From an uncultured bacterium (lineage in GTDB: Bacteria; Chlamydiota; Chlamydiia; Chlamydiales; JAAKFR01), in assembly GCA_964588495.1 (NCBI GenBank), contig CAZPPS010000009.1, forward strand, positions 9,833 through 73,832: a DNA stretch of 64,000 nucleotides. The letters are read 5' to 3'. This document shows, piece after piece, positions 3,137-29,719 of the stretch. Made by a program: the position numbers and the translations under genes. The notes beneath the pieces were generated by a model. It was not told where the DNA came from. It worked only from the letters and a program-made list of their open reading frames with translations, and made no database searches. Within the stretch, counting starts at the first letter, position 1. Each line of letters opens with the position of its first letter.

Positions 3137-3897
3137 TGATTTACTAGATATTGAAAAACTGAGGCATGCTGAAAGAACGTTTTAAGCGTCGATTCTGCAT
3201 AGCAGACATAAAGATGCCCATCTTTTTCAATAAAGTCCAAAAAAAGTGCTCGCTCGCTTGCATTTTGTGCAAAACCATGTGTGGGATCTTCGACTTGAGA
3301 TGAGCGCTTTCCGCGGCACAAATAAGCTTTTCGATCTTTTGAAACATTCAATTCTTCGAAACGGCCATCCAGGATGTTGAGATGGGCTGAAATGATCTCA
3401 TCCACACTTAAGGCGCTGAGTTCAAAGGCTCGTACATCCAGATAAAACGGGAGGCCCAGTTCTGTTTCGCCTAAGTAAAGGCGCTTTAAAATCTTAAAAG
3501 GCGCGACCCGCTCACTCTCTGTGCCGCAAATGCACAAAACATTGTAGAGTTGGTCAGGAAAAGCAAAAGGAATGGAGCCTTGAAGGGGCAAAAGTTTGTT
3601 CATTAACAGAGCTGTCAGCTCCCCTTCTGAGATCCCGTTGAGATTTTTACAGAGCGCGCGCACTCTTTCAATATCGCGCACAATTTCAAGGGCTCCCCCC
3701 TGCACTTTAGGCTGGACGTGGAGCCATGGGTTCTGCTGAGTGATCAGAACGGGGGCGGGCACATCTGGTTTGACATGTGTTTGATGGCTAACTGTATTTT
3801 TTTGAGTGACAGCTACCCAGCGCAGCACAATAAATGAGAGTGCGCAGACCAAAAAACAAAGGGATTGAACTTTTTTTCGTTGCGATACAGTTTTCAC
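3133..3897 (-). CDS. hypothetical protein with N-terminal membrane anchor
   Basis: GTG start overlaps the upstream stop (GTGA) and its own stop overlaps the ABC-F ATG (ATGA), implying translational coupling. Hydrophobic segment LCFLVCALSFIVLRWVAV. No family recognised. Confidence 0.55.
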   Translation of the reverse strand: MKTVSQRKKVQSLCFLVCALSFIVLRWVAVTQKNTVSHQTHVKPDVPAPVLITQQNPWLHVQPKVQGGALEIVRDIERVRALCKNLNGISEGELTALLMNKLLPLQGSIPFAFPDQLYNVLCICGTESERVAPFKILKRLYLGETELGLPFYLDVRAFELSALSVDEIISAHLNILDGRFEELNVSKDRKAYLCRGKRSSQVEDPTHGFAQNASERALFLDFIEKDGHLYVCYAESTLKTFFQHASVFQYLVNQ

Positions 3898-5210
3898 ATA
3901 ACCTCGGCAGCTAAAGCGGCAAGTGGGGAGCGCTCTGTTTTTTCCATAAATACATGTCCATATAGCTTGGATTCCTTGAATTTCGCAACTACATAGGTGA
4001 GGCCGTTGGAATTTTTATCCAAATAGGGATTGTCAATCTGCGTAGGATCCCCTGTAAGAACGACTTTAGTATCGGTTCCTGCTCGTGAAATAATCGTTTT
4101 GACCTCATGAGGAGTCAAATTTTGCGCTTCATCGATGATCATAAACATCTTGGGCAAAGATCTACCGCGGATATAAGTGACAGCTTCCATCTCCAACTTC
4201 TTGCTTTCAGTTACCCAGCGGAGCGTTTCATTGGGATCGTGGGCTGCCGATTCACACAAAAACTCCAGATTGTCATAAATGGGCTGCATCCAGTGGATCA
4301 ATTTTTCTTCCTTTAGGCCAGGCAGATATCCAATGTCCCTACCAAGAGGAACAATCGGGCGGCTCACGAGTATCCGATTGTAGATATTTTCGTCAAAAAC
4401 CTTCCGCAAAGCAGCTGCTAAGGCAAGCAACGTTTTTCCTGTCCCTGCAGGACCTATGAGCGTAATGAGCTTCACATCATCGCGCAAGAGCAAATCCAGG
4501 GCACATCTTTGTTCCACATTGAGAGGATTAATCCCCCAGACAGACGGTGGAAGGGGTAACAAGGAGACAACTTGCTTGAGCTTGGGATCATATTTGCCCA
4601 CTGCAGACGAATGGTACTCTGAGGTCATCAGACAGTATTCGTTAGGGAAAAATGGCTCAACCCCGTTTAGGGAAAGATCGACTTTGCCATCTTTAAAAAA
4701 CAGATCAATTGAGTGTTTGTCAAGCTCGAGTTTGCGGTAACCCCTATAGAGAAGATCGTAGTTATATTTTAGATTTTCATAATCTTCTGAAGCCATACCC
4801 ATGGCCTGGGCTTTGATGCGCATGGCCAGATCTTTTGAGACAAAAACCACTTTTTCACCTTTGTCGAAAAGGAAAAAAGCGGCCATGAGAATACGGTAGG
4901 AAATACTAGAGAGATTCAATGCAAAATTTGGGCTGAAATGGCTTTTAATTTCGATTTGAATGCGGATTGTGCATCCAGTGGGCAACGTAACCCCTGTATG
5001 CAGGTCTCCTGAGCCCATTTTTTTCAGAGAATCAAAATAGGCAAGAACACTCCGGGCATTTTTTCCCCGCTCATCGCGAAAACGCTTGATCTCGGCAAGC
5101 TCTTCAAAAACTCCAAGAGGGATAACAACGTCATTATCACCAAAAGCTTCGGGTGCTGCTGGATCATGTAGCAAAACGTTCGTGTCGATTACAAAGGTTT
5201 TTCTGGTCAT
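3894..5210 (-). CDS. phoH: PhoH-like ATPase with N-terminal PIN domain (YlaK-type)
   Basis: PIN-like N-terminus (FVIDTNVLLHDP), Walker A GPAGTGKT, Walker B MIIDEAQN, and the PhoH C-terminal block GDPTQID. Confidence 0.85.
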   Translation of the reverse strand: MTRKTFVIDTNVLLHDPAAPEAFGDNDVVIPLGVFEELAEIKRFRDERGKNARSVLAYFDSLKKMGSGDLHTGVTLPTGCTIRIQIEIKSHFSPNFALNLSSISYRILMAAFFLFDKGEKVVFVSKDLAMRIKAQAMGMASEDYENLKYNYDLLYRGYRKLELDKHSIDLFFKDGKVDLSLNGVEPFFPNEYCLMTSEYHSSAVGKYDPKLKQVVSLLPLPPSVWGINPLNVEQRCALDLLLRDDVKLITLIGPAGTGKTLLALAAALRKVFDENIYNRILVSRPIVPLGRDIGYLPGLKEEKLIHWMQPIYDNLEFLCESAAHDPNETLRWVTESKKLEMEAVTYIRGRSLPKMFMIIDEAQNLTPHEVKTIISRAGTDTKVVLTGDPTQIDNPYLDKNSNGLTYVVAKFKESKLYGHVFMEKTERSPLAALAAEVM

Positions 5211-5382
5211 TAGCGCTCTCTTTTTATTCCAATATCGCCTATATATGATTTCTTGGAAAAAAGAGGCAATTGAATAAAATTAGCAGTCGAAGATTTCGAA
5301 TGCTAAAAAGAGGTTGCCCAAAATCAAGCATTTTTAGTACACTATTGTATAGATTCTTGAAACAACAGAAGAGTTGGCTACC

Positions 5383-6141
5383 ATGAAAGTAAAAATTGAT
5401 GAAAAATTAATTTGTATTCCTCCTTATATTTCGACAACTTGGGAGCAAGTCATATTTCTTCAATCCGAAGAAGATGACCAAACCCACCTTTTCACCTTAA
5501 TTCTTCATTTAACGGATGGTAAAGAAGTCCGCATTCCTAGCCTTGACTCCTCTCTGGTCGATATCGCCTTTGCCGCCCACATAAAGTCTTTGGAAAGAAA
5601 AGGAGCGCCCGCATCTGCTGCACGTAATCCTGATAATTCAAAAGCTTTAGGCAATATACTCCAGCAGCTTACCGGCCTTTCAAGCGATCAAATCGCCAAT
5701 ATGCCCATCAAATTTGGAATTGCTGGCATGGAAGGCTTGCCCGGCATGGAAGTTCTTCAACACACTCAAAATCAGTCTGACTCGCCTGAAATGCCCGCTG
5801 AAGTAGTAGAGAAAATTTCAGGCATGATCAAGATGATGACAAATGGCGATGTTGCCTCATTTCCAAAGCCAGAGCCTCATTGCAACTGCCCCCATTGCCA
5901 GGTTGCTAGATCCATACATGGCATTTCAAAAATGGAAACTCCACAAGAGCCCGAAGTTGCTATCTCGGAAGAAGATTTAAGATTCCGCGACTGGGATATT
6001 ACACAAAAAGCGGACCAACTCTATTGCGTCACCAATCCTTTGGATCCGCAAGAGCAGTACAATGTCTTTTTGGGAACTCCTGTGGGATGTACTTGTGGGA
6101 CCGCTCATTGTGAGCACATAAAAGCAGTTCTGTATAGCTGA
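5383..6141 (+). CDS. hypothetical protein with C-terminal SWIM-like zinc-finger motif
   Basis: ATG at 5383 is preferred over the track's TTG at 5374. The C-terminus GCTCGTAHCEHIKAVL resembles CxC...CxH (SWIM) with a short spacer, and there is an additional CNCPHC. Confidence 0.55.
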   Translation: MKVKIDEKLICIPPYISTTWEQVIFLQSEEDDQTHLFTLILHLTDGKEVRIPSLDSSLVDIAFAAHIKSLERKGAPASAARNPDNSKALGNILQQLTGLSSDQIANMPIKFGIAGMEGLPGMEVLQHTQNQSDSPEMPAEVVEKISGMIKMMTNGDVASFPKPEPHCNCPHCQVARSIHGISKMETPQEPEVAISEEDLRFRDWDITQKADQLYCVTNPLDPQEQYNVFLGTPVGCTCGTAHCEHIKAVLYS

Positions 6142-7463: not shown

Positions 7464-8906
7464 ATGCCATTTGTTCGCCTTTTTTCTGCCGCTTTTGTAG
7501 GTCTGGAAGCACTTCCGGTGGAGGTAGAGGTCGATCTTGAGCCAAAAGTTGGCATGGTGCGCATTGTGGGACTTCCCGATGCCGCTGTCAAAGAGTCGAA
7601 AGACCGTGTTTTGCATGCAATTAAGAATAGCAACTATAGCGTCGATGAAATCACATGCACGATTCACCTTGCGCCTGCTGAAATCAAAAAAGTGGGGGCA
7701 TTTTACGACCTTCCCATCGCTTTGGGCATCTTACAAGGAATCCGAGCTTTCCACTCCAGCACTCTCGATCAGTACTTAATCGGGGGAGAACTTGGGCTAG
7801 ATGGAGAAATTCGCCCCATTTTTGGGAGTTTATCTTTGAGTTTGCTTGCCCAACAGTTGGGCAAAAAAGGAGTCGTGCTTCCACTTGCTAATGCCAAAGA
7901 GGCAGCTCTTGTCCCCGGTTTAGAAATCATTGGACTTCAAAATTTAAAAGAGGCAATCACCTTTTTTAAACTGGGACATGCCCCCAAATATGCACCCGAA
8001 CCAATTGAATTTAAAGAAGCCCAATGCTTAGTGGATATGAAAGATATTCGGGGGCAGATTCACGCCAAAAGAGCTCTTGAAATCGCAGCGGTTGGAAATC
8101 ACAATGTGCTGATGCAAGGGGCACCAGGTTCTGGCAAATCGATGCTGTCAAAGGCTTTCATTGGGATTTTGCCTCCCCTCACGCTCAATGAGGCTCTTGA
8201 GGTCACAAATATCTACTCTCTATCGGGCAATGGAAGTGATTTGATCAAAACGCGCCCTTTGCGCTCCCCACACCACACGATCAGTTATGCTGGAATGGTA
8301 GGTGGAGGCTCTTATCCAAAACCGGGAGAGATTTCACTTGCCCATAGAGGTGTTCTTTTTCTTGATGAGCTCTGTGAATTTTCAAGGGCAACTCTTGAAG
8401 TTTTAAGACAGCCCCTCGAAGATAAAGTCATTACGGTGAGCCGCGCAGGACAAAAAATCACTTTCCCCACAGATTTTATCTGCATTGCGGCGATGAATCC
8501 CTGTCCTTGCGGCTTTTTAGGCCACCCTGAGAAGGTTTGCCGGGATAGCCAAAAACAAATCGACCAATACCGGAGAAAAATCTCAGGCCCATTCCTGGAC
8601 AGAATTGACATTCAACTCGACGTCTCACCTGTTGCCTATGAAGACATCATGAGCTCTTCCCAAGCCGAAACCTCAGAAACCATCCGCAAACGGGTAGAGC
8701 ATGCCCAAGCAATCCGTTCCTCTATCTCAAGAGAGCTGGATGAACCCTGCAGGCTGCTCATGAAAGAAGCCTTCGATACTCTCAGTATCTCCGCACGCGC
8801 CTTCAACCGTATTGTCAATGTGGCCCAAAGCATCGCCGCCCTCGACAATAGCGCCACCATTTGTGATGCTCACCTCCTCGAGGCCCTCTCTTACAGAAAG
8901 CAATAG
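7464..8906 (+). CDS. comM: Mg-chelatase-like ATPase ComM/YifB
   Basis: N-terminal Lon-like domain (LPVEVEVDL..GLPDAAVKESKDRV), Walker A GAPGSGKS, Walker B LFLDEL, and the zinc cluster NPCPCG typical of YifB. ATG at 7464 is preferred over TTG at 7458. Confidence 0.9.
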   Translation: MPFVRLFSAAFVGLEALPVEVEVDLEPKVGMVRIVGLPDAAVKESKDRVLHAIKNSNYSVDEITCTIHLAPAEIKKVGAFYDLPIALGILQGIRAFHSSTLDQYLIGGELGLDGEIRPIFGSLSLSLLAQQLGKKGVVLPLANAKEAALVPGLEIIGLQNLKEAITFFKLGHAPKYAPEPIEFKEAQCLVDMKDIRGQIHAKRALEIAAVGNHNVLMQGAPGSGKSMLSKAFIGILPPLTLNEALEVTNIYSLSGNGSDLIKTRPLRSPHHTISYAGMVGGGSYPKPGEISLAHRGVLFLDELCEFSRATLEVLRQPLEDKVITVSRAGQKITFPTDFICIAAMNPCPCGFLGHPEKVCRDSQKQIDQYRRKISGPFLDRIDIQLDVSPVAYEDIMSSSQAETSETIRKRVEHAQAIRSSISRELDEPCRLLMKEAFDTLSISARAFNRIVNVAQSIAALDNSATICDAHLLEALSYRKQ

Positions 8907-8920
8907 TCCCAACCTTCCGT

Positions 8921-8938
8921 CCCCGTGCCCGTGCCCGG
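8921..8938. repeat. degenerate half-copy of GTGCCC-hexamer family
   Basis: CCCCGTGCCCGTGCCCGGG lies between the convergent stops of comM (8906) and cydB (8952). Confidence 0.45.
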
Positions 8939-8951
8939 GAAGTAAATGGGC

Positions 8952-11410: not shown

Positions 11411-12259
11411 ATGAAGATATTGTCAACAAGTCAGCCTGCCAATACAATTCCCGCAAACGACTCGCAAGAGAAAAACATGACTTTTCTACACACGCTTATT
11501 CCTTTGATCGAAGTGATCATCATCTGGGTCATGTTTAACTATCTGCTCAAGTTTTTTTGGGGAACCCGGGCGATGGATGTCGTTTTGGGCTTCTTGGCCT
11601 TTCTTTTTATTTTTTTCCTCGCCAGCTGGTTTGCCTTTCCGGTCCTTGAAAAACTCCTCATTGGGATCATTAACGTCCTTGTTTTGGCAGTCATCATCAT
11701 TTTCCAACCCGAATTACGCCTTGCCCTTTCAAAATTGCGTATACGAGGAAAAAAATACCGAGAAATTCATGAGTTTGACAACTTTTTAGAAGGTCTTGTC
11801 AATTCCGTTTACAAACTCTCTGAAAAGCAGATCGGCGCCTTGATTGTTCTCGAAAATCAAGATTCTTATGAAGAATACTCAAGCTCTGCAGTGCAGATGA
11901 ACGCTGCTTTTTCACCCGAGCTTTTGGAAACAATCTTCATGACAACAACCCCTTTGCACGATGGAGCCGTTGTCATTAGAGGAACAACGATTGTGGCAGC
12001 CGGCACCATTTTACCCCTTGCGCAAGAGACAGCTCAACTTGCAAAATCGATGGGAACCAGGCATAGAGCAGCTCTTGGAGCCTCTCAAAAAACAGATGCT
12101 TTGATCATTGTGGTTTCAGAAGAAACGGGAAAGGTTTCCATTGCACGCGACGGCATTCTTACACGGGGCATTAAAATCGACCGTTTCAGGGGCATTGTCC
12201 GTAGCATTTTCACACCGCCCGACTTGACCCGGCGCTTTAAACTATGGGGATGGCGGTAA
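11411..12259 (+). CDS. dacA: diadenylate cyclase (c-di-AMP synthase, CdaA/DacA type)
   Basis: N-terminal TM helices plus a DisA_N domain with DGA (PLHDGAVVI) and RHRAA (GTRHRAALG) motifs. An alternative start is ATG 11477. Confidence 0.9.
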   Translation: MKILSTSQPANTIPANDSQEKNMTFLHTLIPLIEVIIIWVMFNYLLKFFWGTRAMDVVLGFLAFLFIFFLASWFAFPVLEKLLIGIINVLVLAVIIIFQPELRLALSKLRIRGKKYREIHEFDNFLEGLVNSVYKLSEKQIGALIVLENQDSYEEYSSSAVQMNAAFSPELLETIFMTTTPLHDGAVVIRGTTIVAAGTILPLAQETAQLAKSMGTRHRAALGASQKTDALIIVVSEETGKVSIARDGILTRGIKIDRFRGIVRSIFTPPDLTRRFKLWGWR

Positions 12260-13491
12260 TGAGAGCTATTTTAACACGCATTTTCATCAAACATTGGCCA
12301 CGAAAGCTTGTCGCGCTCACCACCGCAATTATTGTGTGGTTTTTGGTCAACCAAACCATCACAGTCACCCGCACTATCGCAGATGTGCCCGTCAGAGTGA
12401 TCAATCTTCCTCCCGATAAAACAGTTTTAGGCCTCCTTCCTAATGGGCTTTTAAATAAACGGATTGCCATTACAGTTTCAGGAAAAAAATCGACAATCAC
12501 CGATTTACATCCTACAGATCTCGAAGTGACCATCAATGCTGAAGGGCATAAAGAGAGCTGGATTGCATCAATTTCAAAAAGAAACCTGGTCAGTTTGAAT
12601 CCCGCTTTCGATCTTAATAAAGATATTTCTGAAATGAGCGCCAACGACATCTTTATTAAATTGAGCAAACTGGTCACTGACGACATTCCTGTGACCATCA
12701 CCAAGCCTGTGGGTGATCCTCCAAAGGGATACCAGTTTCTTGAAATCTGGCCGCGGTATTTAACTCAAAAGGTGAGTGGCCCTGAAGAGCAAATCCGTGA
12801 GCTCAAACAAAAGGGCATTGAGCTTACTTTTAACCTGAATAGGATCGCTCAAACAGACCTGGACACTCTCTATGAAAGGCACAAAAGAGATGAAATTTAC
12901 TTTTTGGTCCCCGATGCCTGGAAAAAAGTGGCCATTCCATTTAAAGATAATGCCCTAGAGCCCCTGAATGATCCAAGAGCCGATTTGCTCCGTATTGATT
13001 TCCTTAAAAAGGAACTCATTTTCTTGGGAGCCGATATGCCCATTACCATTTTCTTTCCCATCAAATATAGCCAAACAATCAACCCCCAAACCTACTCTTT
13101 GGCAGCAGCTGATATAATCCAGAAGAGAAATGGACTTAAAAGACTGACAGTTCCCCTTTATGTACGTGATGTATCGACTCTCTTTCTCGATGTTGTCCGC
13201 GATAATCTCCTTCTCGTGATTGTGGCAGCTCCCAAAAACGTCCAGGAGACTCTTTATTGGTCGATACAAGTGATCGATACCAAAAACCTTGAGGATGCCT
13301 TTGTCAAAGCCTCCTTTGAGCAGGCAGATGAAAAATACACTGAAGAGAGCTTCACCAAATATAGCGAGCAAGCCATCCGCTATCGATTCCGGGAATATGT
13401 CAATAAACTGGTTGTATTCACTGAGGATGGTAAACCTTTCCAAATGAAAGCAGAGCTGGATGCCAACACAGTCAACCTCATTTTGGAGTAA
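12244..13491 (+). CDS. ybbR: YbbR-domain protein (CdaR-like partner of the cyclase)
   Basis: Overlaps the dacA stop (a TAATG start at 12259 is also possible). It has an N-terminal TM helix and repeated beta-rich YbbR-like modules. Position next to dacA matches other bacteria. Confidence 0.7.
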   Translation: MGMAVMRAILTRIFIKHWPRKLVALTTAIIVWFLVNQTITVTRTIADVPVRVINLPPDKTVLGLLPNGLLNKRIAITVSGKKSTITDLHPTDLEVTINAEGHKESWIASISKRNLVSLNPAFDLNKDISEMSANDIFIKLSKLVTDDIPVTITKPVGDPPKGYQFLEIWPRYLTQKVSGPEEQIRELKQKGIELTFNLNRIAQTDLDTLYERHKRDEIYFLVPDAWKKVAIPFKDNALEPLNDPRADLLRIDFLKKELIFLGADMPITIFFPIKYSQTINPQTYSLAAADIIQKRNGLKRLTVPLYVRDVSTLFLDVVRDNLLLVIVAAPKNVQETLYWSIQVIDTKNLEDAFVKASFEQADEKYTEESFTKYSEQAIRYRFREYVNKLVVFTEDGKPFQMKAELDANTVNLILE

Positions 13492-13530: not shown

Positions 13531-13745
13531 TTTTTAAACACAAAGACACAAAGGCACAAAGAAATAGTATTCTTTCCCTCTCTGTGTTCTCTGTGTCCTC
13601 TGTGGTTTTATAAATTCCCCCCGCAGTGTTTTTGCAAATAAGGTTTCGGGAAAAATAAAAAACCACAGAGAACACAGAGAACACAGATAAGAAAAAAACT
13701 ATCTCTTTCTATCTTCGTGTCTTTGTGTCTTTGTGTTTAAAAAAA
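13531..13745. repeat. ~215-bp nested-palindrome element, copy A (MITE-like)
   Basis: Outer arms are TTTTTAAACACAAAGACACAAAGGCACAAAG / CTTCGTGTCTTTGTGTCTTTGTGTTTAAAAA. Inner arms are CTCTGTGTTCTCTGTGTCCTCTGTGGTTTT / AAAAACCACAGAGAACACAGAGAACACAG. They surround a ~50-nt core. Confidence 0.85.
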
Positions 13746-13790
13746 GCGCAGACTTAGGTCGCGTACGCTAGTTACGACGGAAAAACAATA

Positions 13791-14891
13791 ATGAAAGTCA
13801 CATTTTTAAAGAGTAGAGCCAACTTTCGAGGGGGGCTGGAAAAGTATACGCGGCAGCTGATTCAGGCTTTTGTTGAAAAAGGGTGCGAGGTTACCTTGTT
13901 GACAACCGGAGAGCCTCCGCAGATCCCTAAGATGCGTGTCCACTCCCTTGCTCCCAATTCGAAGCTGGCCGTCTTCCACCTCAGCCGCTTTGACACACTT
14001 TGCAGAAAGTGGCTCCAAGAGCATCCTCAAGATGTGATTTTTGGGATGGAGCGGACAAGCCTCCAAACTCATTACCGCGCAGGAAGTGGTGTGCACGCGA
14101 TTTATCTGCAAAGACGGGCACTTGTGGATTCTTTTTGGAAAAAATGCACGTTTGCCCTCAATCCTCTCCATCGGAAAGTCCTCTCTATTGAGAAAAAAAC
14201 CTTCGAAGACCCTAATCTGAGAGTGTTATTTACCAATTCTCACATGGTCAAAAATGAAATCCTAACGACCTACAAGACAGATCCTTCCAAAATTGAAGTG
14301 GTCCATAACGGCGTAGAGTGGCACAAATGGCAAACCCCCTTTGAAGAAACTTTTGCTCAAAAAAGAGGATCTCAAATCGAACTTCTTTTCATCGGCAACG
14401 GCTACAAGAGAAAAGGACTTCTTTTTTTGCTCAATGCTTTGGCCCACATCCCCGAAGATTTCCATCTGACAGTCGCAGGTAAAGACAAAAACCCTGCCTT
14501 TTTTGAAGAAACAGCAACCCGATTGGGACTCCAAAGAAAGGTCTCATTCATTGGCTCCCAACAAAATTTGCTTCCCGCCTATCAGAAAGCAGATATCCTT
14601 GTGATTCCTTCCCTCTATGATCCGTTTGCCAATGTGACAGTGGAGGCCTTAGCGATGGGCCTTTATGTGGTCTCCTCCCCCTTTAACGGAGGCTCTGAAG
14701 TGCTCCAGGAGTTTTCAGGGACTGTGATAGAAGATCTTTTTTCAACAGAGAGCGTCACTTCAGCCTTAAAAAAAGCTTTTGCCCACCCTAAAACTGAAGA
14801 GAGTGCGCGGAAAATACGAGAGAGTATTAAAGAGTTGGATTTTTCGAACCAATTAGATAAAATCGTTCTCAAAACTCTCCAAACCATTTAA
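13791..14891 (+). CDS. glycosyltransferase, GT-B fold family 4 (group 1)
   Basis: 366 aa with C-terminal signature LVIPSLYDPFANVTVEALAMGLYVVSS..GGSEV (an EX7E-type region). Confidence 0.85.
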   Translation: MKVTFLKSRANFRGGLEKYTRQLIQAFVEKGCEVTLLTTGEPPQIPKMRVHSLAPNSKLAVFHLSRFDTLCRKWLQEHPQDVIFGMERTSLQTHYRAGSGVHAIYLQRRALVDSFWKKCTFALNPLHRKVLSIEKKTFEDPNLRVLFTNSHMVKNEILTTYKTDPSKIEVVHNGVEWHKWQTPFEETFAQKRGSQIELLFIGNGYKRKGLLFLLNALAHIPEDFHLTVAGKDKNPAFFEETATRLGLQRKVSFIGSQQNLLPAYQKADILVIPSLYDPFANVTVEALAMGLYVVSSPFNGGSEVLQEFSGTVIEDLFSTESVTSALKKAFAHPKTEESARKIRESIKELDFSNQLDKIVLKTLQTI

Positions 14892-14902
14892 TCTTTGTAT
14901 AT

Positions 14903-15122
14903 TTTTAAACACAAAGACACGAAGACACAAAGGCACAAAGAGAAAGAAATAAAATAACCCTTCTCTCTGTTCTCTGTGTCCTCTGTGGTTTTTTATTTTT
15001 TCTCGGGACACTATTTCTCAAATAGCTTGCGTGAATTTCGAAAAACCACAGAGGACACAGAGAACACAGCGAAGAAAAATGAAATTTCTATCTCTTCTTT
15101 CCATTGTGTCTTTGTGTTTAAT
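14903..15122. repeat. ~215-bp nested-palindrome element, copy B (core inverted relative to copy A)
   Basis: It has the same outer (AAACACAAAGACAC...) and inner (CTCTGTGTCCTCTGTGGTTTT / AAAACCACAGAGGACACAGAGAACACAG) arms as copy A. The central ~50 nt aligns to the reverse complement of copy A's core. Confidence 0.85.
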
Positions 15123-15146
15123 AAAAGATTTGCAGCTCAGACAACC

Positions 15147-16397
15147 ATGATTTATTTTTTTAACTATTGCATCTTTCGGATTTTTGGCTTTTTTGTGTCT
15201 CTGCTTTCTTACAAGATGCTCCACCGCGTGGGGAATATCGCAGGAATTTGCGCCTTTTACCTCCATAAACCCTACCGCAAAAAGGCTCTCATTAACCTTG
15301 CCATTGCTTTTGGGGAGACAAAAACGGAAAAAGAGCGCCTTGCGATTGCCAAAAAGTCTTTCCAGAATTTAATGATTACCTGTCTGGAATTTTTCCGTCT
15401 CAAAAAAAGCTACAAAAAAACTTCTGAAATTGCCAGCCTGACAGAGGCTCCCGAGCTCACAAAGCTTCTTGAAAACAAGCAGGGGATCGTTTTTTTGAGC
15501 GCCCATCAGGCCAACTGGGAAGTTCCCTTTATTGCCCTAACAGAAAAATATCGAGGCGTTGCGATCGGTCGCCCTGTCAAAAATAAACGACTCTACCGCT
15601 ATGTGCTTTCGGTGCGCGAAATGCACGGTGGAAAAATTGTCACTCCTAAAAATGCAATCAAGGCTAGTCTTAAAGCGTTAAAAGGAGGAGAATTTTTGGG
15701 TATTGTTGGGGATCAAGCCTACCAGGATAGCCCCTACCATTACCCATTTTTTGGAACAAGGGCTTGGACCGCTTCCACTCCTGCCCTCTTGGCGTACAAA
15801 ACCGGCTGTCCTCTGGTTGTGGGAACCACTAAACGCATCAACGACCACTATTACATAAAAGCTGCAAAACCTATCTGGCCTGATCTTGCCGCCCCTATCA
15901 AAGATGAGGTGCCCAAGATGATGGATGAAGCCATGCATTATCTTGAAAAAAGCATCAATGAGATTCCTGAACAGTGGATGTGGATCCATAACAGGTGGAA
16001 ACAGCCACGCGTTAATCACCTCAAAAGGAAATACCGGCACAATTTTGTGTTAATCGTGCTTCCACCAAATCCAAAGCCCTTTTTGGAGACTCTGCCCCTC
16101 ATCAGGAATCTTTTTCCCGAAGGCTTTTTGACCTTTTTTGTTCCCAAAGGAGCTACAATTTCTGTTTCAGATTGCACGGTGAAAGAATATGAAAAAGAAG
16201 AGGATCTTTTTATCCGAGACTGGCGCTTTCAATTGGTAATCGATTTTTACGATTCGAGCAAACTGCGCCGCCATTTCTTGAAGATGGGAGCTTATCACGC
16301 CCTCTCTTTGCCAAATATGAAGCCGCAAAAAACCCTTTCAGAAACCCTTAAACACCATTTGGTAAGGCCTGAATGCCACACGACCGCTTTTATTTAA
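15147..16397 (+). CDS. lpxL: lipid A biosynthesis (lauroyl/late) acyltransferase LpxL/HtrB family, with C-terminal extension
   Basis: N-terminal TM helix, HX4E acyltransferase motif (SAHQANWE), and the LpxL-type end WMWIHNRWK followed by ~115 extra residues. ATG at 15147 was chosen because the track start at 14976 lies inside repeat copy B. Confidence 0.8.
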   Translation: MIYFFNYCIFRIFGFFVSLLSYKMLHRVGNIAGICAFYLHKPYRKKALINLAIAFGETKTEKERLAIAKKSFQNLMITCLEFFRLKKSYKKTSEIASLTEAPELTKLLENKQGIVFLSAHQANWEVPFIALTEKYRGVAIGRPVKNKRLYRYVLSVREMHGGKIVTPKNAIKASLKALKGGEFLGIVGDQAYQDSPYHYPFFGTRAWTASTPALLAYKTGCPLVVGTTKRINDHYYIKAAKPIWPDLAAPIKDEVPKMMDEAMHYLEKSINEIPEQWMWIHNRWKQPRVNHLKRKYRHNFVLIVLPPNPKPFLETLPLIRNLFPEGFLTFFVPKGATISVSDCTVKEYEKEEDLFIRDWRFQLVIDFYDSSKLRRHFLKMGAYHALSLPNMKPQKTLSETLKHHLVRPECHTTAFI

Positions 16398-17080
16398 ATT
16401 CTCAGTTTCAAAAAGAAGCTGAAGTTGAGCTCTCTGGAGAAGAGGCCCATCATTTGCAAGTCATGCGCAAGCGAGAGGGTGAAATCATTGAGCTTGTTAA
16501 CGGTCAAAATCAACTGGCAAGGGCAAAAATCCTCTCTTTTGGGAAAAAGCAAATCGCCCTTCAAGTGCTTGGGATCACACACAAAGAGCCTTCAAAAAAC
16601 AAAATCATCCTCTGCCAGGCCCTCTGCCGTCCCAATCGTCTTGATACCATCGTCGAAAAAGGGACAGAGCTTGGAATGGATGAGCTTTGGCTTTTTCCCG
16701 GCCAGCTCAGCGAAAAAAAAGAGCTCACCCCTAATCAACTCGAAAGGCTCCATACCATCACAATTGCCGCGATGAAGCAGTGTGGCCGTTTGGATCTCCC
16801 TAAGATTATTGTGAAAGAGCCTTTGCTGAAGTGGCAAAAACTGCCCGAAAATATGATTTTTTACTTTGGAGACACCGATGAGAAGGCTCCTTGGATCCAA
16901 AATTGTGTCAAAAAAGCTACACAATGTGTCGTGATGATAGGCCCAGAGGCGGGCTTTTCGGATGCCGAAACGGAATTTTTAAGAAATGCAGGGGCACAAG
17001 GTGTGCGCCTGCATTCCAATATTTTGCGCACTGAGACAGCAGCTATTGCCGCTTTGGTACTAGTCTCGGTTAGTTTTTAG
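16373..17080 (+). CDS. rsmE: 16S rRNA (uracil1498-N3)-methyltransferase RsmE
   Basis: N-terminal PUA-like region (RFYL...L.GEEAHHL.V.R...GE) and a C-terminal SPOUT block (IGPEAGFS..E......G...V.L...ILRTETA). Confidence 0.85.
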   Translation: MPHDRFYLNSQFQKEAEVELSGEEAHHLQVMRKREGEIIELVNGQNQLARAKILSFGKKQIALQVLGITHKEPSKNKIILCQALCRPNRLDTIVEKGTELGMDELWLFPGQLSEKKELTPNQLERLHTITIAAMKQCGRLDLPKIIVKEPLLKWQKLPENMIFYFGDTDEKAPWIQNCVKKATQCVVMIGPEAGFSDAETEFLRNAGAQGVRLHSNILRTETAAIAALVLVSVSF

Positions 17081-24127: not shown

Positions 24128-27100
24128 ATGGAAAAACACCCTATAGTTCTTAAAAAAGTGAATGTTCATAATCTCAAGGGAATTGATATTACCCTTCAGA
24201 CGAATGAATTGATAGTCTTTACAGGCGTCTCAGGATCAGGCAAATCCTCCCTTGCTTTTGACACCCTTTTTGTTGAAGGACAAAGAAGGTATATCGAATC
24301 CCTTTCCACGTTTGCCCGCAGATATCTGGGCGATCTGGTCAAACCCGATGTTGAGTATACCTCAGGGCTTGCTCCCACAATTTCAATCGAGCAAAAAAGC
24401 GCCTCCCAAAATCCAAGGTCCACTGTTGGGACCATGACAGAGATCTACGATTACTTACGTGTTTTATTTGCGCGCGTTGGAACGCCCCACTGCCCTGTCA
24501 GCGGCGAAGCTGTCAGCCCCCAGAGTAAAGAACGGATCATCAAAACCATTCAGGCCCTTCCTGAAAAGACAAAAATCATGGTCATGGCCCCCGTTGCCAA
24601 GGATAAGAAGGGGGAATTCAAAGACGATTTCAAACAATTTTTGCGTAAAGGTTATACACGGGCCCGTGTCGACGGGAAAATTGCAGATCTCAGCGAAGAG
24701 ATCAGTCTGGAAAAAAATATTGCCCACACCATCGATCTGATTATCGATAGACTCTCTGTAACAGAAGAAAATCATTCCCGAATTGCCGAATCTGTGATCG
24801 CAGCCCTTGAGCTCGGTTCTGGTGTTGTCAGCATTTTTAACACAGAAACTGAAGAAGAAAAACTTTTTTCTACCCTTGCCTGGTCCCACAAATCGGGCCT
24901 TTCCTACGCTTCTTTAGAGCCACACGATTTTTCCTTTAATAGCCCAACGGGGATGTGCCCTAAGTGTAGCGGCCTTGGATTTATACAAGAATTTGATTTG
25001 GAAAAGGTGATCGATCCTGAAAAAAGCATCGAAGAAGACTGCTGCAGCATCGCTAGCTCGTTTCAAACAGTGCGCTACGGCAATATTTACCGCAATCTTG
25101 CCGAAATTTTTGGATTTGATCTTTCGACTCCTTGGAAAGACCTCTCAGAAGAGGCTAAAAGGTTATTTTTATATGGGAGTGACAAAAAGTGGATCCAAAT
25201 GCATTTTGTCCATCCAGACAGACCCCAAAGCTGGACAGATTATGTCCACTGGAGCGGCGTTTTAAATGAAGCCCACCGCCGTTTCATGGAGGCGACAAGC
25301 GCCAACTATCGAAAAAAAATGCAGGCGCTCATGCATGAAGGAGTTTGTCCAGAATGTCACGGAACACGCCTCCGCCCTTATCCTGCTGCCACAATTCTTG
25401 GAGGTTTAAAAATCCATGAAATTTGCCAAAAAGACATCGCAGGTATCCTCCAATTTTTCCAAAATCTCCACCTCGATCCCACAGAAGAAATCATCGCTGA
25501 AGAGCTTTTGAAAGAGATCGAAAGAAGACTCCAATTTCTCATCGCTGTGGGGCTCCATTATTTAACTCTTGAGCGAACAGCCCCTACCCTTTCAGGCGGT
25601 GAAGCCCAGCGTGTGCGGCTAGCTTCTCAGGTGGGATCTGGTCTCGTTGGAGTGACCTACATTCTTGATGAGCCCTCCATTGGTTTACATCCACGGGATA
25701 ACAAGAAGCTGATTGCTACCTTAAAAGAGCTCCGAGATGTGGGCAACACTGTGATTGTTGTCGAACATGATGAGGAAACCATTTGGGAAGCTGACCGTGT
25801 TGTTGACTTTGGACCGGGCCCAGGAGAGCTTGGTGGAAAGATTCTTGTGAATGGATCTCTTAAAGAGCTTCTCGAAAACCCTGATTCTGTGACGGGCGCC
25901 TATCTAAGCGGTAAAAAAACAATCCCGATCCCCAAAAAAAGGCGCAAAATCGATAAAGACGAAGCCATCGTTATCAAGGGAGCTTCCCACAATAACCTCA
26001 AAAATATCGATGTGTCCTTCCCTCTTGGGGTCATGATCGCAGTCACCGGAGTGTCCGGTTCGGGCAAATCCTCTTTAATCACCGACACGCTCTATCCGGC
26101 CCTTTCTAATCACCTGCACAATGCAGAACATGCGATTGGCAAACACAAAAAAATGAGCGGAATCGACAAAATCGACAAAGTTATTGCCATCGATCAAGCC
26201 CCTATTGGACGTACGCCAAGATCTAACCCTGCCACCTACATCAAATTCTTCGATGAAATTCGGGATTTGTTTGCACAAGTGCCCGAAAGTGTGGCTAAAG
26301 GGTTTTTGCCGGGAAGATTCAGCTTCAATGTCCGCGATGGAAGCTGTCCTCAGTGTCACGGCATGGGAATGCTCAAAATCGACATGGATTTCTTGGAAGA
26401 TCAATGGGTGGTCTGCCAAACCTGTCAAAACAAACGTTTTGATCATGAAACGCTCTCCATCCACTATAAAGGGAAAAACATTCACGATGTCTTGGAGATG
26501 ACAGTTGCCGATGCCCAAAATTTCTTCGCCAATATTCCCACTTTGAAGCGGAAGCTTGAGACCGTTGCTAAAGTGGGGATGGAATATATTCGCTTAGGGC
26601 AACCTTCCACAACCCTTTCTGGCGGGGAAGCGCAGCGGATCAAATTGGCCAAAGAGCTTGTCCGCCCAGGCACTGGACGGACTCTTTATATCCTTGATGA
26701 GCCGACAACCGGACTTCACTTCCATGATATCGCAGCTCTTTTGAAAGTGCTCCATGAGCTAGTTGAGCGGGGCAATACGGTTTTAGTCATCGAACATAAC
26801 ATGGACGTTGTCAAAACGGCCGACTGGATTATTGATCTTGGAACGGAAGGGGGAGCAGGAGGTGGGCAACTCGTCGCCACAGGCACTCCTGAGACCCTTT
26901 TGAAAATGGATACTCCCACTGGAAACGCCCTCAAAGAAACTTTTTTTCCAAAAAAACATGCGCTCACTAAAAAAAGAGAAGCTGGCGCGGAAATTCAGGA
27001 AATTATTGTCCAAGGAGCTGAGCAAAACAACCTAAAACGGCTCGACATCTCCATTCCGCGGGGTAAACTCACAATCTGCACAGGACCATCCGGTTCGGGC

Positions 27101-29719
27101 AAAAGCTCTTTTGCATTTGACACGATCTATGCAGAAGGACAAAGACGGTATATTGAGTCCTTGTCTCCTTATGCGCGCCAATTTGTCCGTCAATGCCCCA
27201 AGCCCAAGATCTCCCAAATCGACGGGCTCTCTCCGGCAATTGCCATCGAACAAAAAGCAGCTGCGGGAAATCCACGATCCACAGTCGGGACTATGACTGA
27301 GATCTACGATTATTTGCGCATTCTTTTTGCACAAATTGGGACAGCTTATGACCCTGAAACACAAGAAGAAATCAAATCGATCACCAAAGAATCCGTCGTA
27401 GAAAATATCCTCTCTTTCCCTGAAGGGGAAAAAATCACCGTGCTCGCCCCTTTGGTTCTGCAAAAAAACGAAAAAATTGAGGATCTTAAGTCCCGTTTGA
27501 TCCGTTTAGGATTTTTGCGCATCCGGATCAACCAACAGATCTATGAACTGGACGAGACCATCGAATTTGACAGGAAGCGGAAAAACGAAATTGCTTTAGT
27601 CATCGATCGGATCAAGGTGTCTAAAGAGGGTGAGGGGCGTCTTTTTGAGGCCATTTCCACAGCGGCTCACATTGGCAATCAAAAAATCATCGTGATGAGA
27701 GAAAACAAAGATGTGTTTTTCAATCTCGCGTTTGCCGTTGAAAGTACAGGCAAATCCTTCCCAGAAATTACTCCACACACATTTTCTTTTAATAGCCAGG
27801 AAGGGATGTGCCCCGATTGTTTAGGCCTTGGAATCAGTTATGGGGCCAATTTGACCCATAACTGGGAGATCATGCAACTCTCTGTCATTGGTCTTTTGCG
27901 TTCTTTATGGACAACCACAGAAATTCCCCTTTTTGAGAAGTTTTTGAAAGAAGTTGGAATTAATCCCCACACAACCCTGGAAGACTTAAATAATGATCAG
28001 CTACAGCTTCTTCTCAACGGCTCAATCGGGGAAAAATGGTTTTCGACAAAAGAGGGCTTCCGTTTCCGCTGGCTCGGAATCCAGCCTATTTTGGCAAAAG
28101 CGGGCAAAAGCGCTTATAACGAAATCAAATCCCCTTTAATTCCCCTTCTGGATGAAATTGAATGTGTTTCCTGCCAGGGAGCACGTCTTCATCCCCTTGC
28201 GCGCAACGTGCGCATTAAAAACCATTCAATTGCTTCTTTGTGTCAGCTTCCTATCGAGAAATCCCTCAACTTTTTAGAAAAACTTGAAATTCCGAAGAAA
28301 AAAGTCAAAGTGCTCGAAGATGTGATGAAACAGATCGTCGAACGGCTCGGATTTTTGGTAGAAATTGGGTTGAACTATTTAAGTCTGGATCGGAGAGCCC
28401 CTACTTTGAGTAATGGGGAAGCACAGCGGATACGTCTTGCAAGACAACTTGGCAGTAAACTCACAGGCGTTCTCTACGTTTTGGATGAACCCACAATTGG
28501 ACTTCACCCTCAAGACAATGCCCGTTTAAACGGAGCCCTACAAAATCTCAAAGATCTTGGGAACACGCTCGTGATGGTAGAGCACGACCCACAAACCATT
28601 AAAACTGCTGACTATATCCTCGATTTTGGGCCAGGCTCTGGCCTTCAAGGGGGACATGTGACGGCAGAGGGCACCTACAAGCAGATTTTGAAGAACAAAA
28701 AATCCCTCACAGGGGGTTATCTTTCGGGAAGAGAAAAAATTGAGATCCCTAAGAAAAGACGGGAGGCCAAAGGGTATTTTACAATTGAGAAAGCCACCCA
28801 AAACAATCTGAAAAATCTCACGTTCAATTTACCAATGGGCGTCATGAGCTGTTTGACGGGTCTTTCCGGCTCAGGAAAATCGACTTTGATGCACGATGTG
28901 ATCAAACAAAAGGCCCTCCCTTTAATTGATAAAGAAGAGCCTTTTAACAAACTCATCCTCATCGATCAAAACCCGATTGGCCATACTGTCCGCTCCGATG
29001 TGGGAACTTATTCTGAGGTTCTTAATGTGTTGCGAGAATTTTACGCAGCCTTGGGTGGATCAAGGGTCAAAGGACTTCAACCCAGACATTTCAGTTACAA
29101 CCACCGCAAAGGGATGTGCACCCATTGCTGGGGACTTGGCTACAAAAAAATCGAGATGCTTTTCCTCCCGGCTGTTAAAGTAATGTGCGATCAATGCCGG
29201 GGAATGAGACTGAATCCCCTCTCTTTGAGCGTCCAATATGAGGGGAAACATTTTGGGCAGCTCCTTGAAATGACAGTGGATGAGGCAAGGGAGCAGTTTT
29301 CTATATTACCCAAAGCGTGCCGGATACTCGACACATTGATCGCTGTGGGATTAGGATATCTGAAGCTAGGGCAAGAGATGGTTTCTTTGTCTGGAGGCGA
29401 AGCGCAGCGGATTAAGTTATCAAGGGAGCTTTCAAAAAGGGGAACCGGCAAGACTTTATATCTTTTGGATGAGCCGACAACAGGTTTGCATCCTGAGGAC
29501 ATTAAAAAATTGCTGATTTTGCTCCACAAACTGGTCGACAAAGGAAATACGATGGTTATTATCGAACATAATCTCGATATTATCCAGAATGCCGATTTTG
29601 TGGTGGATTTGGGACCTGGAGCTGGGGACTTGGGGGGAAAAATTGTGGCTATGGGGAGTCCGGAGGAGATTGCACTTGACCCCAAATCGGTGACGGGAAA
29701 ATATCTATTCAAGAATTAG
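24128..29719 (+). CDS. uvrA: excinuclease ABC subunit A, tandemly duplicated (UvrA-UvrA fusion)
   Basis: Two complete UvrA units are present, with the second starting near nt 26990. There are four Walker A sites (GVSGSGKSS x2, [18 protein letters not shown]), four LSGGE signatures and zinc-module cysteines in both halves. Confidence 0.95.
   Translation: [1863 protein letters not shown]

Follow-up and report, generated by a model that had tools for sequence, protein, structure and literature searches.

A stretch of 64,000 nucleotides from an uncultured member of the Chlamydiales (contig CAZPPS010000009.1; the whole stretch is called the window below) carries a gene for a GT4 glycosyltransferase (GT) that lies between two non-coding nested palindromes of about 215 nt, here named elements A and B. 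We favor, with a probability of roughly 65%, a history in which the GT4 gene was inherited vertically and the two palindromes were inserted secondarily at its junctions. GT4 would then be an old member of an environmental-chlamydial cluster folP-dacA-ybbR-GT-lpxL-rsmE, and in this lineage one repeat copy would have entered the ybbR-GT junction and the other the GT-lpxL junction. The elements themselves may be selfish or near-neutral DNA, which would be tolerated because it sits exactly between genes and because its arms are free of stop codons. The initial annotation of this DNA had instead seen in the GT gene a cassette delivered or mobilized by the repeats, a proposal that is contradicted by the gene order in relatives, where GT follows ybbR in all nine genomes examined, and by a divergence and GC content that match those of the neighboring genes.

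The two elements and the gene between them are placed in the window as follows.

13531-13743 (no strand assigned): element A, 213 nt, nested palindrome, defined by repeat finder and fold
13536-13561 and 13713-13738: outer arms of element A, CACAAAG units with an 8-nt period
13579-13609 and 13659-13687: inner arms of element A, CACAGAG units with a 9-nt period
13610-13658: core of element A
13791-14891 (plus strand): GT4 glycosyltransferase, 366 aa, intact, with matches to Pfam Glycos_transf_1 and Glyco_transf_4 and to NCBIfam
14902-15124 (no strand assigned): element B, 223 nt, architecture as in element A, defined by repeat finder and fold
14907-14940 (four units) and 15103-15119 (two units): outer arms of element B
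14962-14992 and 15042-15069: inner arms of element B
14993-15041: core of element B

Both elements consist of a hairpin of CACAAAG units with a CACAGAG hairpin nested in its loop. The outer arm has the sequence TTTTTAAACACAAAGACACAAAGGCACAAAG and the inner arms are CTCTGTGTTCTCTGTGTCCTCTGTGGTTTT and AAAACCACAGAGRACACAGAGAACACAG, separated in each element by a core of about 49 nt. The repeat finder returned composite inverted arms of 74 nt with 70% complementarity for element A and of 77 nt with 81% complementarity for element B. As RNA, each element is predicted to fold into a single long hairpin (A, -105.1 kcal/mol, z = -15.4; B, -96.8 kcal/mol, z = -12.8), and the DNA fold of element A reaches -65.5 kcal/mol (z = -14.0). 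Coordinates, repeat finder, and folds agree with the initial annotation that two nested-palindrome copies surround the GT gene, and its observation that they bracket exactly one gene, GT4 between a ybbR-like gene and lpxL, holds as well. The outer-arm 14-mer AAACACAAAGACAC and the inner-arm 21-mer each occur five times in the window, where 0.06 and 0.00 occurrences, respectively, are expected; in all, the window holds two composites 1.4 kb apart and one partial copy of the inner arm. The outer arms vary by whole units, with three on either side in A, whereas B has four in its left arm and two in its right one. Comparison of A with B gives identities of 80-94% for the arms and of 45-67% for the linkers and cores. 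Both elements are AT-richer than the surrounding genes, and the list of open reading frames (ORFs) contains no long ORF that falls wholly within either of them. The outer arms of the window and the canonical units lack T on one strand and hence A on the opposite one, so that neither a stop codon nor an ATG is possible in any of the six frames; the outer arm indeed has zero stops in six frames, and the 2-nt spacers between units sometimes contain T. An Rfam scan of the region gave only generic miRNA-precursor models, all far below the gathering score (best 49.6 bits vs 83).

The evidence for vertical inheritance of GT4 comes from synteny. GT has more than 1500 homologs, the closest of which (49-72% identity) are found in environmental Chlamydiales, and the gene context was examined in nine relatives. 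In all nine, including L360 (55%) and L361 (49%), ybbR is followed by the GT gene. In seven the GT gene stands directly before lpxL, and the other two have extra genes inserted after it. The order dacA-ybbR-GT-lpxL-rsmE is present in L120/L121, L125, L128, and L129. Neither window element is present in any of the nine relatives, and a GT gene that is fixed in all of them without these elements identifies the elements as later insertions into two intercistronic junctions. The initial annotation had itself named a GT gene between ybbR and lpxL in relatives without the repeats as an argument against a cassette, and this is the arrangement that the relatives display. GT identities across seven relatives are 72, 66, 65, 64, 64, 60, and 58%, and ranking the relatives by GT, by ybbR (79 to 67%), or by lpxL (72 to 56%) yields one and the same order. 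With a GC content of 0.43-0.49, the GT gene is like its neighbors. All three genes are intact, since GT covers 100% of its homologs, lpxL encodes 416 aa, and ybbR encodes 415 aa compared to 410-418 aa in the relatives. Judged by sequence comparison, environmental chlamydiae have inherited the GT4 gene vertically and conserved it as a partner of lpxL.

We give next to no credence to the idea that the repeats brought or mobilized the GT gene in the manner of a composite transposon or an integron cassette. Such a cassette would agree with the flanking of exactly one gene, with the phage family described below, in which the inner-arm module marks the 5' boundary of inserted small genes, and with relative L122, in which a related module lies beside a two-gene insertion at the GT-lpxL junction. 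However, GT is in place in every relative and the elements of the window in none, its divergence parallels that of ybbR and lpxL, its GC content is normal, and no transposase or integrase is encoded by the ORFs of the window (a Pfam search of about 35 of them gave no transposase, integrase, or recombinase domain). An integron gene cassette was rejected on the fixed position of GT, on the presence of palindromes on both sides of it, and on the missing integrase in the window, and a composite transposon was rejected since the elements are non-coding and the gene that they enclose is ancestral, with a divergence that keeps pace with that of the genes beside it.

The junctions that received the elements are narrow in several relatives. 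Both are tight or overlapping in L120, L128, and L129. An overlap of 4 nt joins ybbR and GT in L120, L122, and L360, L129 has a longer one, and in the closest relative, L127 (72% GT identity), 9 nt lie between the two genes. The GT-lpxL gap measures 10 nt in L120 and 0-4 nt in L128 and L129, and in L125 GT overlaps lpxL. By parting genes that abut or overlap in relatives, the elements should break translational coupling. Hairpins of about 100 kcal/mol in a polycistronic mRNA would probably cause attenuation of transcription or processing by RNase III, and could thereby shift the ratio of GT to lpxL expression.

Insertions at the ybbR-GT and GT-lpxL junctions have occurred repeatedly among the relatives. 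Four of the nine have neither a module nor a hairpin at these junctions, and unrelated hairpins, modules, or extra genes are found there in the remaining five. The GT-lpxL gap of L124 (7115-7205) contains a related CGCAGAG hairpin, TTTTGACCGCAGAGGACGCAAAG...CTCTGTGTCCTCTGCGGTCAAAA, of -50.6 kcal/mol, and the ybbR-GT gap of L125 (5890-6003) an unrelated hairpin with 45-nt arms and -57.3 kcal/mol. A CACGGGC-type periodic module lies at the GT-lpxL junction of L127 (2765-2800) and, in opposite orientation, of L122 (about 8000-8060), where it accompanies two inserted small ORFs. At the same junction L360 has an extra gene of the CBAH family (5041-6123).

In line with an alternative in the initial annotation, which considered terminator and promoter structures, these hairpins could also be read as selected structures, which serve as bidirectional terminators or attenuators, as RNase III sites, or as mRNA stabilizers and make GT an expression unit of its own. 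Such a regulatory role overlaps with secondary insertion and is not exclusive of it; as the explanation of the elements we consider it rather unlikely. It would account for the extreme stability of both hairpins, for their position exactly from stop to start on both sides of one gene, for arms that are better conserved than linkers and cores, and for the junction hairpins that L124 and L125 possess independently. Analogues exist, as REP and BIME sequences act as stabilizers and Correia and ERIC elements are processed in mRNA. On the other hand, four relatives have tight junctions without any hairpin, indicating that the structure is not required. The stems of A and B also lack the U-tract typical of intrinsic terminators, and a promoter scan of the region found no promoter-like or consensus promoter site. 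A terminator scan gave two matches, both outside the elements and not above chance level, under a loop limit of 3-8 nt that excludes hairpins of this kind.

The two copies had been described as inverted relative to each other, and this part of the initial annotation is weakly supported. With one choice of core boundary the cores align better in the inverted sense (score 11.5 vs 4.5 direct), but segment by segment they are 60% identical in either sense, and the whole elements are 74% identical in direct and 76% in inverted alignment. Because each copy is itself palindromic, the relative orientation of A and B is essentially not distinguishable. The longest exact words that they share are 25 nt in direct and 28 nt in inverted sense, from which homologous exchange between the copies, leading to deletion or inversion, is conceivable and should be inefficient. 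If the copies served as recombination substrates, as the initial annotation offered as a further alternative, GT could be inverted reversibly or lost, which would amount to a switch of a lipooligosaccharide-modifying enzyme that resembles phase variation. This seems improbable to us, even though homology is available in both senses and a single surface-glycan gene is bracketed. Exact repeats of this length are at the lower limit of what RecA-dependent exchange requires, the copies as a whole are only about 75% identical, GT is intact and in its ancestral orientation, and no promoter was detected, so that inversion would not obviously toggle expression. When the locus is compared to invertons, the 28 nt of exact inverted homology are present and no invertase or recombinase gene is found among the ORFs of the window.

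An origin of the palindromes as assembly artefacts of a metagenome-assembled contig is very improbable. Chimeric reads can produce palindromes, and the databases contain no close relative of this contig. Against this, neither copy is perfect and the two differ by about 25%, both are situated inside the contig with intact genes around them, and the inner hairpin recurs in independent chlamydial assemblies as well as in many isolate and long-read genomes.

The composite of outer and inner arms is present in two copies, and its arms belong to a very widespread class of short-period modules that are poor in T or in A. The inner-arm module can be written as AACCACAGAG-RACACAGAG-nnCACAGAG, and the 19-mer AACCACAGAGRACACAGAG was used to search for it. 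An exact scan with one genome per species found this 19-mer in at least 119 genome loci of many phyla, where by our own arithmetic about nine matches are expected by chance in 596 Gb. The loci listed include Acidobacteriota, Planctomycetota, Verrucomicrobiota, Gemmatimonadota, Nitrospirota, Chloroflexota, Cyanobacteria, Bacteroidota, Thermodesulfobacteriota, several Proteobacteria, one Firmicute, and, from the Chlamydiota, one metagenome-assembled genome (MAG) of the Parachlamydiaceae. Among the matches listed, conservation extends beyond the search pattern, with 60-70% per base in the third CACAGAG unit and a T-rich edge in front of the module. The 142 genomic modules listed comprise 80 single ones, 43 with an inverted partner downstream, 16 with the partner upstream as in the window, and 3 with both, the pairs being head-to-head or tail-to-tail. 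Within one genome (L104) the arms are conserved and the loops are not. The units vary (CGCAGAG, CACGGAG, CACAAAG, CACGAAG), and modules with 8- and 9-nt periods stand side by side in L005, L026, L012, and L114. The Parachlamydiaceae MAG (L062, L076) has the inner hairpin alone, with the GGTT end beside the loop as in the window. No protein family is shared within 4 kb on either side of the 119 loci listed, the largest cluster covering 9 of them. Placement and orientation of the module relative to ORFs were set aside as too noisy, given the spurious ORFs in high-GC DNA.

Two arrangements were observed in passing. In a Chitinophagales MAG (L067:7800-8000), small hairpins that start with TTAACCACAGAG and end with CTTTGTGGTT form a head-to-tail array joined by TCAAAAA(C)TT. 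In an Acidobacteriota MAG (L009:100-700) the module is part of a direct repeat of about 187 nt, with conserved flanks and at least three tandem copies.

Modules of this type are also found at other junctions of the window.

8913-8939 (no strand assigned): single A-less periodic module of CGTGCC units with a 6-nt period, in the gap of the convergent comM-like and cydB genes
52984-53035 (no strand assigned): hairpin of CTTGCC units with a 6-nt period, just downstream of hsp20 (53050-53574, minus strand)
63515-63590 (minus strand): degenerate, partial CACAGAG inner-arm hairpin, -39.1 kcal/mol, z = -5.7

In L128 the comM-cydB junction carries a CACAGAG-type inner hairpin (650-715), so that one junction is occupied by different module types depending on the lineage. 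As read from the sequence, the hairpin at 63515-63590 sits between two long minus-strand genes, probably rpoB and rpoC, so that a third operon junction of the window has the motif.

Bacteriophages provide a view of the module with and without insertion. At least 120 viral contigs of IMG/VR contain the 19-mer. Among the viral modules listed, 121 of 128 are single and 107 of 128 have a third unit of the form CAC(A/G)GAG. The viral module is often located 6-9 nt past an ATG or GTG, in frame, and is then translated as M-x-L-T-T-E-D-T-E-x-T-E at the head of different genes. In one phage family, 26 contigs were retrieved with the terminal sequence that is conserved in the upstream gene, ATGGAGGTGGCGGCRTGA, irrespective of the module. 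The two flanking genes, as read from the sequence, are presumably an AAA_24/Sak4-like ATPase and a DUF2800/Cas4-like nuclease. Three states occur at this junction. In the first, empty state (11 of 26 contigs, e.g., L250, L251, and L264) the downstream gene of 335 aa starts directly, as GTGA followed by TCAAGGAAATC (MIKEISPSSLPKLAECAL...). In the second, filled state (9 of 26, e.g., L140, L172, L257, and L221) the 335-aa gene contains the in-frame insertion GCGGATTAACCACAGAGGACACAGAGGTCACAGAGTTGGTGGTA, which has 45 nt and three units in eight contigs and 36 nt and two units in L221. In the third state (L134, L188, L159, L351, L199, and L211) an additional small ORF (59-92 aa), which belongs to one of at least four unrelated families and has the module at its head, is inserted between the two genes, and the 335-aa gene starts without a module. 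The occurrence of empty, filled, and filled-plus-ORF states at one junction shows that the module is optional and insertable. In these phages its length changes in 9-nt steps, and the accessory ORFs that were inserted have it at their 5' boundary.

On this basis we tentatively put forward, as a possibility that we hold to be less probable than its opposite, that the inner arm, TT-AACCACAGAG-RACACAGAG-nnCAC(A/G)GAG, belongs to a pan-bacterial and phage-borne class of insertable mini-modules that has not been described so far. This class would take in the CGCAGAG, CACGGAG, CACAAAG, CACGAAG, and CACGGGC relatives, with the 215-nt elements as nested derivatives. Its modules would insert at gene boundaries or in frame just past start codons, change in length by single 9-nt units, pair into hairpins, and nest in each other, and it would be natural for them to land at the GT-lpxL and ybbR-GT junctions. 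The literature searched, which omits most subscription journals, contains no description of the module as DNA or as peptide, nor one under MITEs or palindromic repeats in chlamydiae or under REP elements in Planctomycetes and Acidobacteria. BLAST against cultured phages and plasmids gave few matches, none annotated, in phage contigs from the human gut and in plasmids of Nostoc and Anabaena. Several known signals were considered and rejected. By inspection only, DnaA boxes, attC core sites, and promoters of the T3/T7 type do not agree with both the sequence and the orientation data, nor do binding sites of CsrA or Hfq or rut sites of Rho.

With respect to known repeats, elements A and B are a new variant within the class of palindromic intergenic repeats. 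The term MITE-like (miniature inverted-repeat transposable element) that the initial annotation chose is a fair label for their anatomy. In size and inverted repeats they agree with the description of a MITE, being non-coding, 213 and 223 nt in length, and equipped with arms of 74-77 nt and 70-81% complementarity. Like the Correia/NEMIS MITEs of Neisseria they are small, non-coding, and intergenic, with long terminal inverted repeats that form a long hairpin. Correia elements insert between co-transcribed genes, and their RNA hairpin can be processed. In contrast to MITEs, the window elements have no recognizable target-site duplication, no related transposase or insertion sequence (IS), and just two adjacent copies in view, and their arms are built of tandem 8- or 9-nt units with one hairpin nested in the loop of the other. 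No cognate autonomous IS or transposase was found in the ORFs of the window or within 4 kb of the module loci. On these grounds, membership among the MITEs is not established. The inner arm alone spans many phyla, which is not known of any named MITE.

The ends of element A are TTTTTAAAC...GTTTAAAAA and those of element B TTTTTAAAC...GTTTAATAA. The initial annotation had recommended a check for target-site duplications at these ends, and none is recognizable at A or B, because the ends fall in palindromic TTTTTAAA/TTTAAAAA runs. Beyond the terminal AT runs of both elements there is no direct repeat, and the runs themselves are inverted repeats. For a comparison with an empty site, the nearest relative (72% GT identity) is not sufficiently close.

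Palindromes of the REP/REPIN type measure 20-40 nt and carry a conserved GTAG or CGTC at one end (PMC3733652), and the comparison with REP, BIME, and REPIN elements covers palindromes with either tag (PMC3733652, PMC3116915). Like these, the modules are short extragenic palindromes with conserved arms and variable loops, single or paired in either orientation, and often at gene ends. In contrast to REP and REPIN elements, the arms in the window end in AACCAC/GTGGTT or AAACAC/GTGTTT without a GTAG or CGTC tag, and no RAYT-like gene is found among the window ORFs or near the module loci. The arms of the module are tandem 9-mers of about 27 nt, whereas REP stems have 6-13 bp, and REP families are largely confined to one or a few species, whereas the module occurs in many phyla and in phages. 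Rickettsia palindromic elements are reportedly 100-150 nt long and confined to Rickettsia. They resemble the elements discussed here, if these are indeed selfish, in being palindromic selfish DNA of an obligate intracellular host that is tolerated both between genes and in frame in ORFs; the in-frame phage module of 36-45 nt corresponds to the latter situation and the window elements are intergenic. There is no sequence relationship to them. The small dispersed repeats (SDRs) of Nostoc, hairpin-forming mobile repeats that are said to measure 21-27 nt and to be described only in cyanobacteria, are alike in concept, as they are tiny, nest in each other, and occur in tandem short-period repeats and in MITEs. 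The module is itself present in Nostoc and Anabaena plasmids, and the likeness to SDRs noted here is one of described features. The PeSL mobile regulatory cassettes of T4-type phages reportedly consist of an early promoter and a stem-loop between genes. As with PeSLs and attC sites, a short conserved sequence bounds variable inserted phage ORFs in the third state described above. The phage module differs from PeSLs, which are intergenic, in that it is translated, being located shortly past the start codon, and from attC in that neither the defined core sites nor an integrase is seen with it.

Several points weigh against a secondary insertion of selfish palindromes. The composite is visible in just two copies, 1.4 kb apart, in a 64-kb window, and a metagenome scan for the two arms together gave one loosely similar site, which is not chlamydial. 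A target-site duplication could not be identified at either element, and an autonomous partner element was found neither in the window ORFs nor in the 4-kb flanks of the module loci. The scans of the region gave no promoter-like site and only the two chance-level terminator-like matches outside the elements. Finally, arms that are more conserved than cores could mean function instead of selfish spread.

The genes around the elements follow the local order cydBA (minus strand), cdaA/dacA, ybbR-like, element A, GT4, element B, lpxL, rsmE.

11411-12259: cdaA/dacA, upstream of the ybbR-like gene, CdaA identified by domain search
12244-13491 (plus strand): ybbR-like gene, 415 aa, ORF with syntenic homologs that are 67-79% identical
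14976-15146 (plus strand): spurious N-terminal extension of the lpxL ORF, which crosses the right half of element B
15147-16397 (plus strand): lpxL/htrB lipid A acyltransferase, 416 aa from ATG 15147
16373-17080: rsmE, after lpxL

The ybbR genes of the relatives have a faint match to the YbbR family of Pfam. The full extended lpxL ORF (14976-16397) would encode 473 aa, and the inner arm within the extension is translated as TTEDTENT. The initial annotation correctly recognized this extension as spurious; the start of lpxL is ATG 15147, because the resulting 416 aa agree with the 415-416 aa of the relatives.

Two further genes of the window may be mentioned. An ORF of 1863 aa (24128-29719) is UvrA-like, and recurrent matches along it to the UvrA interaction domain and to ABC/AAA-type ATPases suggest that UvrA has been duplicated or fused here. 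At 3894-5210, a fusion of a PIN domain and a PhoH-like ATPase (438 aa) adjoins a gene for an ABC-F type ATPase.

The result for this locus is mainly corrective, in that GT is a conserved partner of lpxL instead of a mobile cassette and that the annotation of lpxL should start at 15147. In addition, chlamydial operon junctions accept large hairpin insertions, and these may re-tune the expression of lipooligosaccharide genes. If the module of about 27 nt is a true mobile or recombinogenic mini-element, it would be among the smallest and most widely distributed known and would provide a handle on the entry of accessory genes into phage and bacterial genomes.

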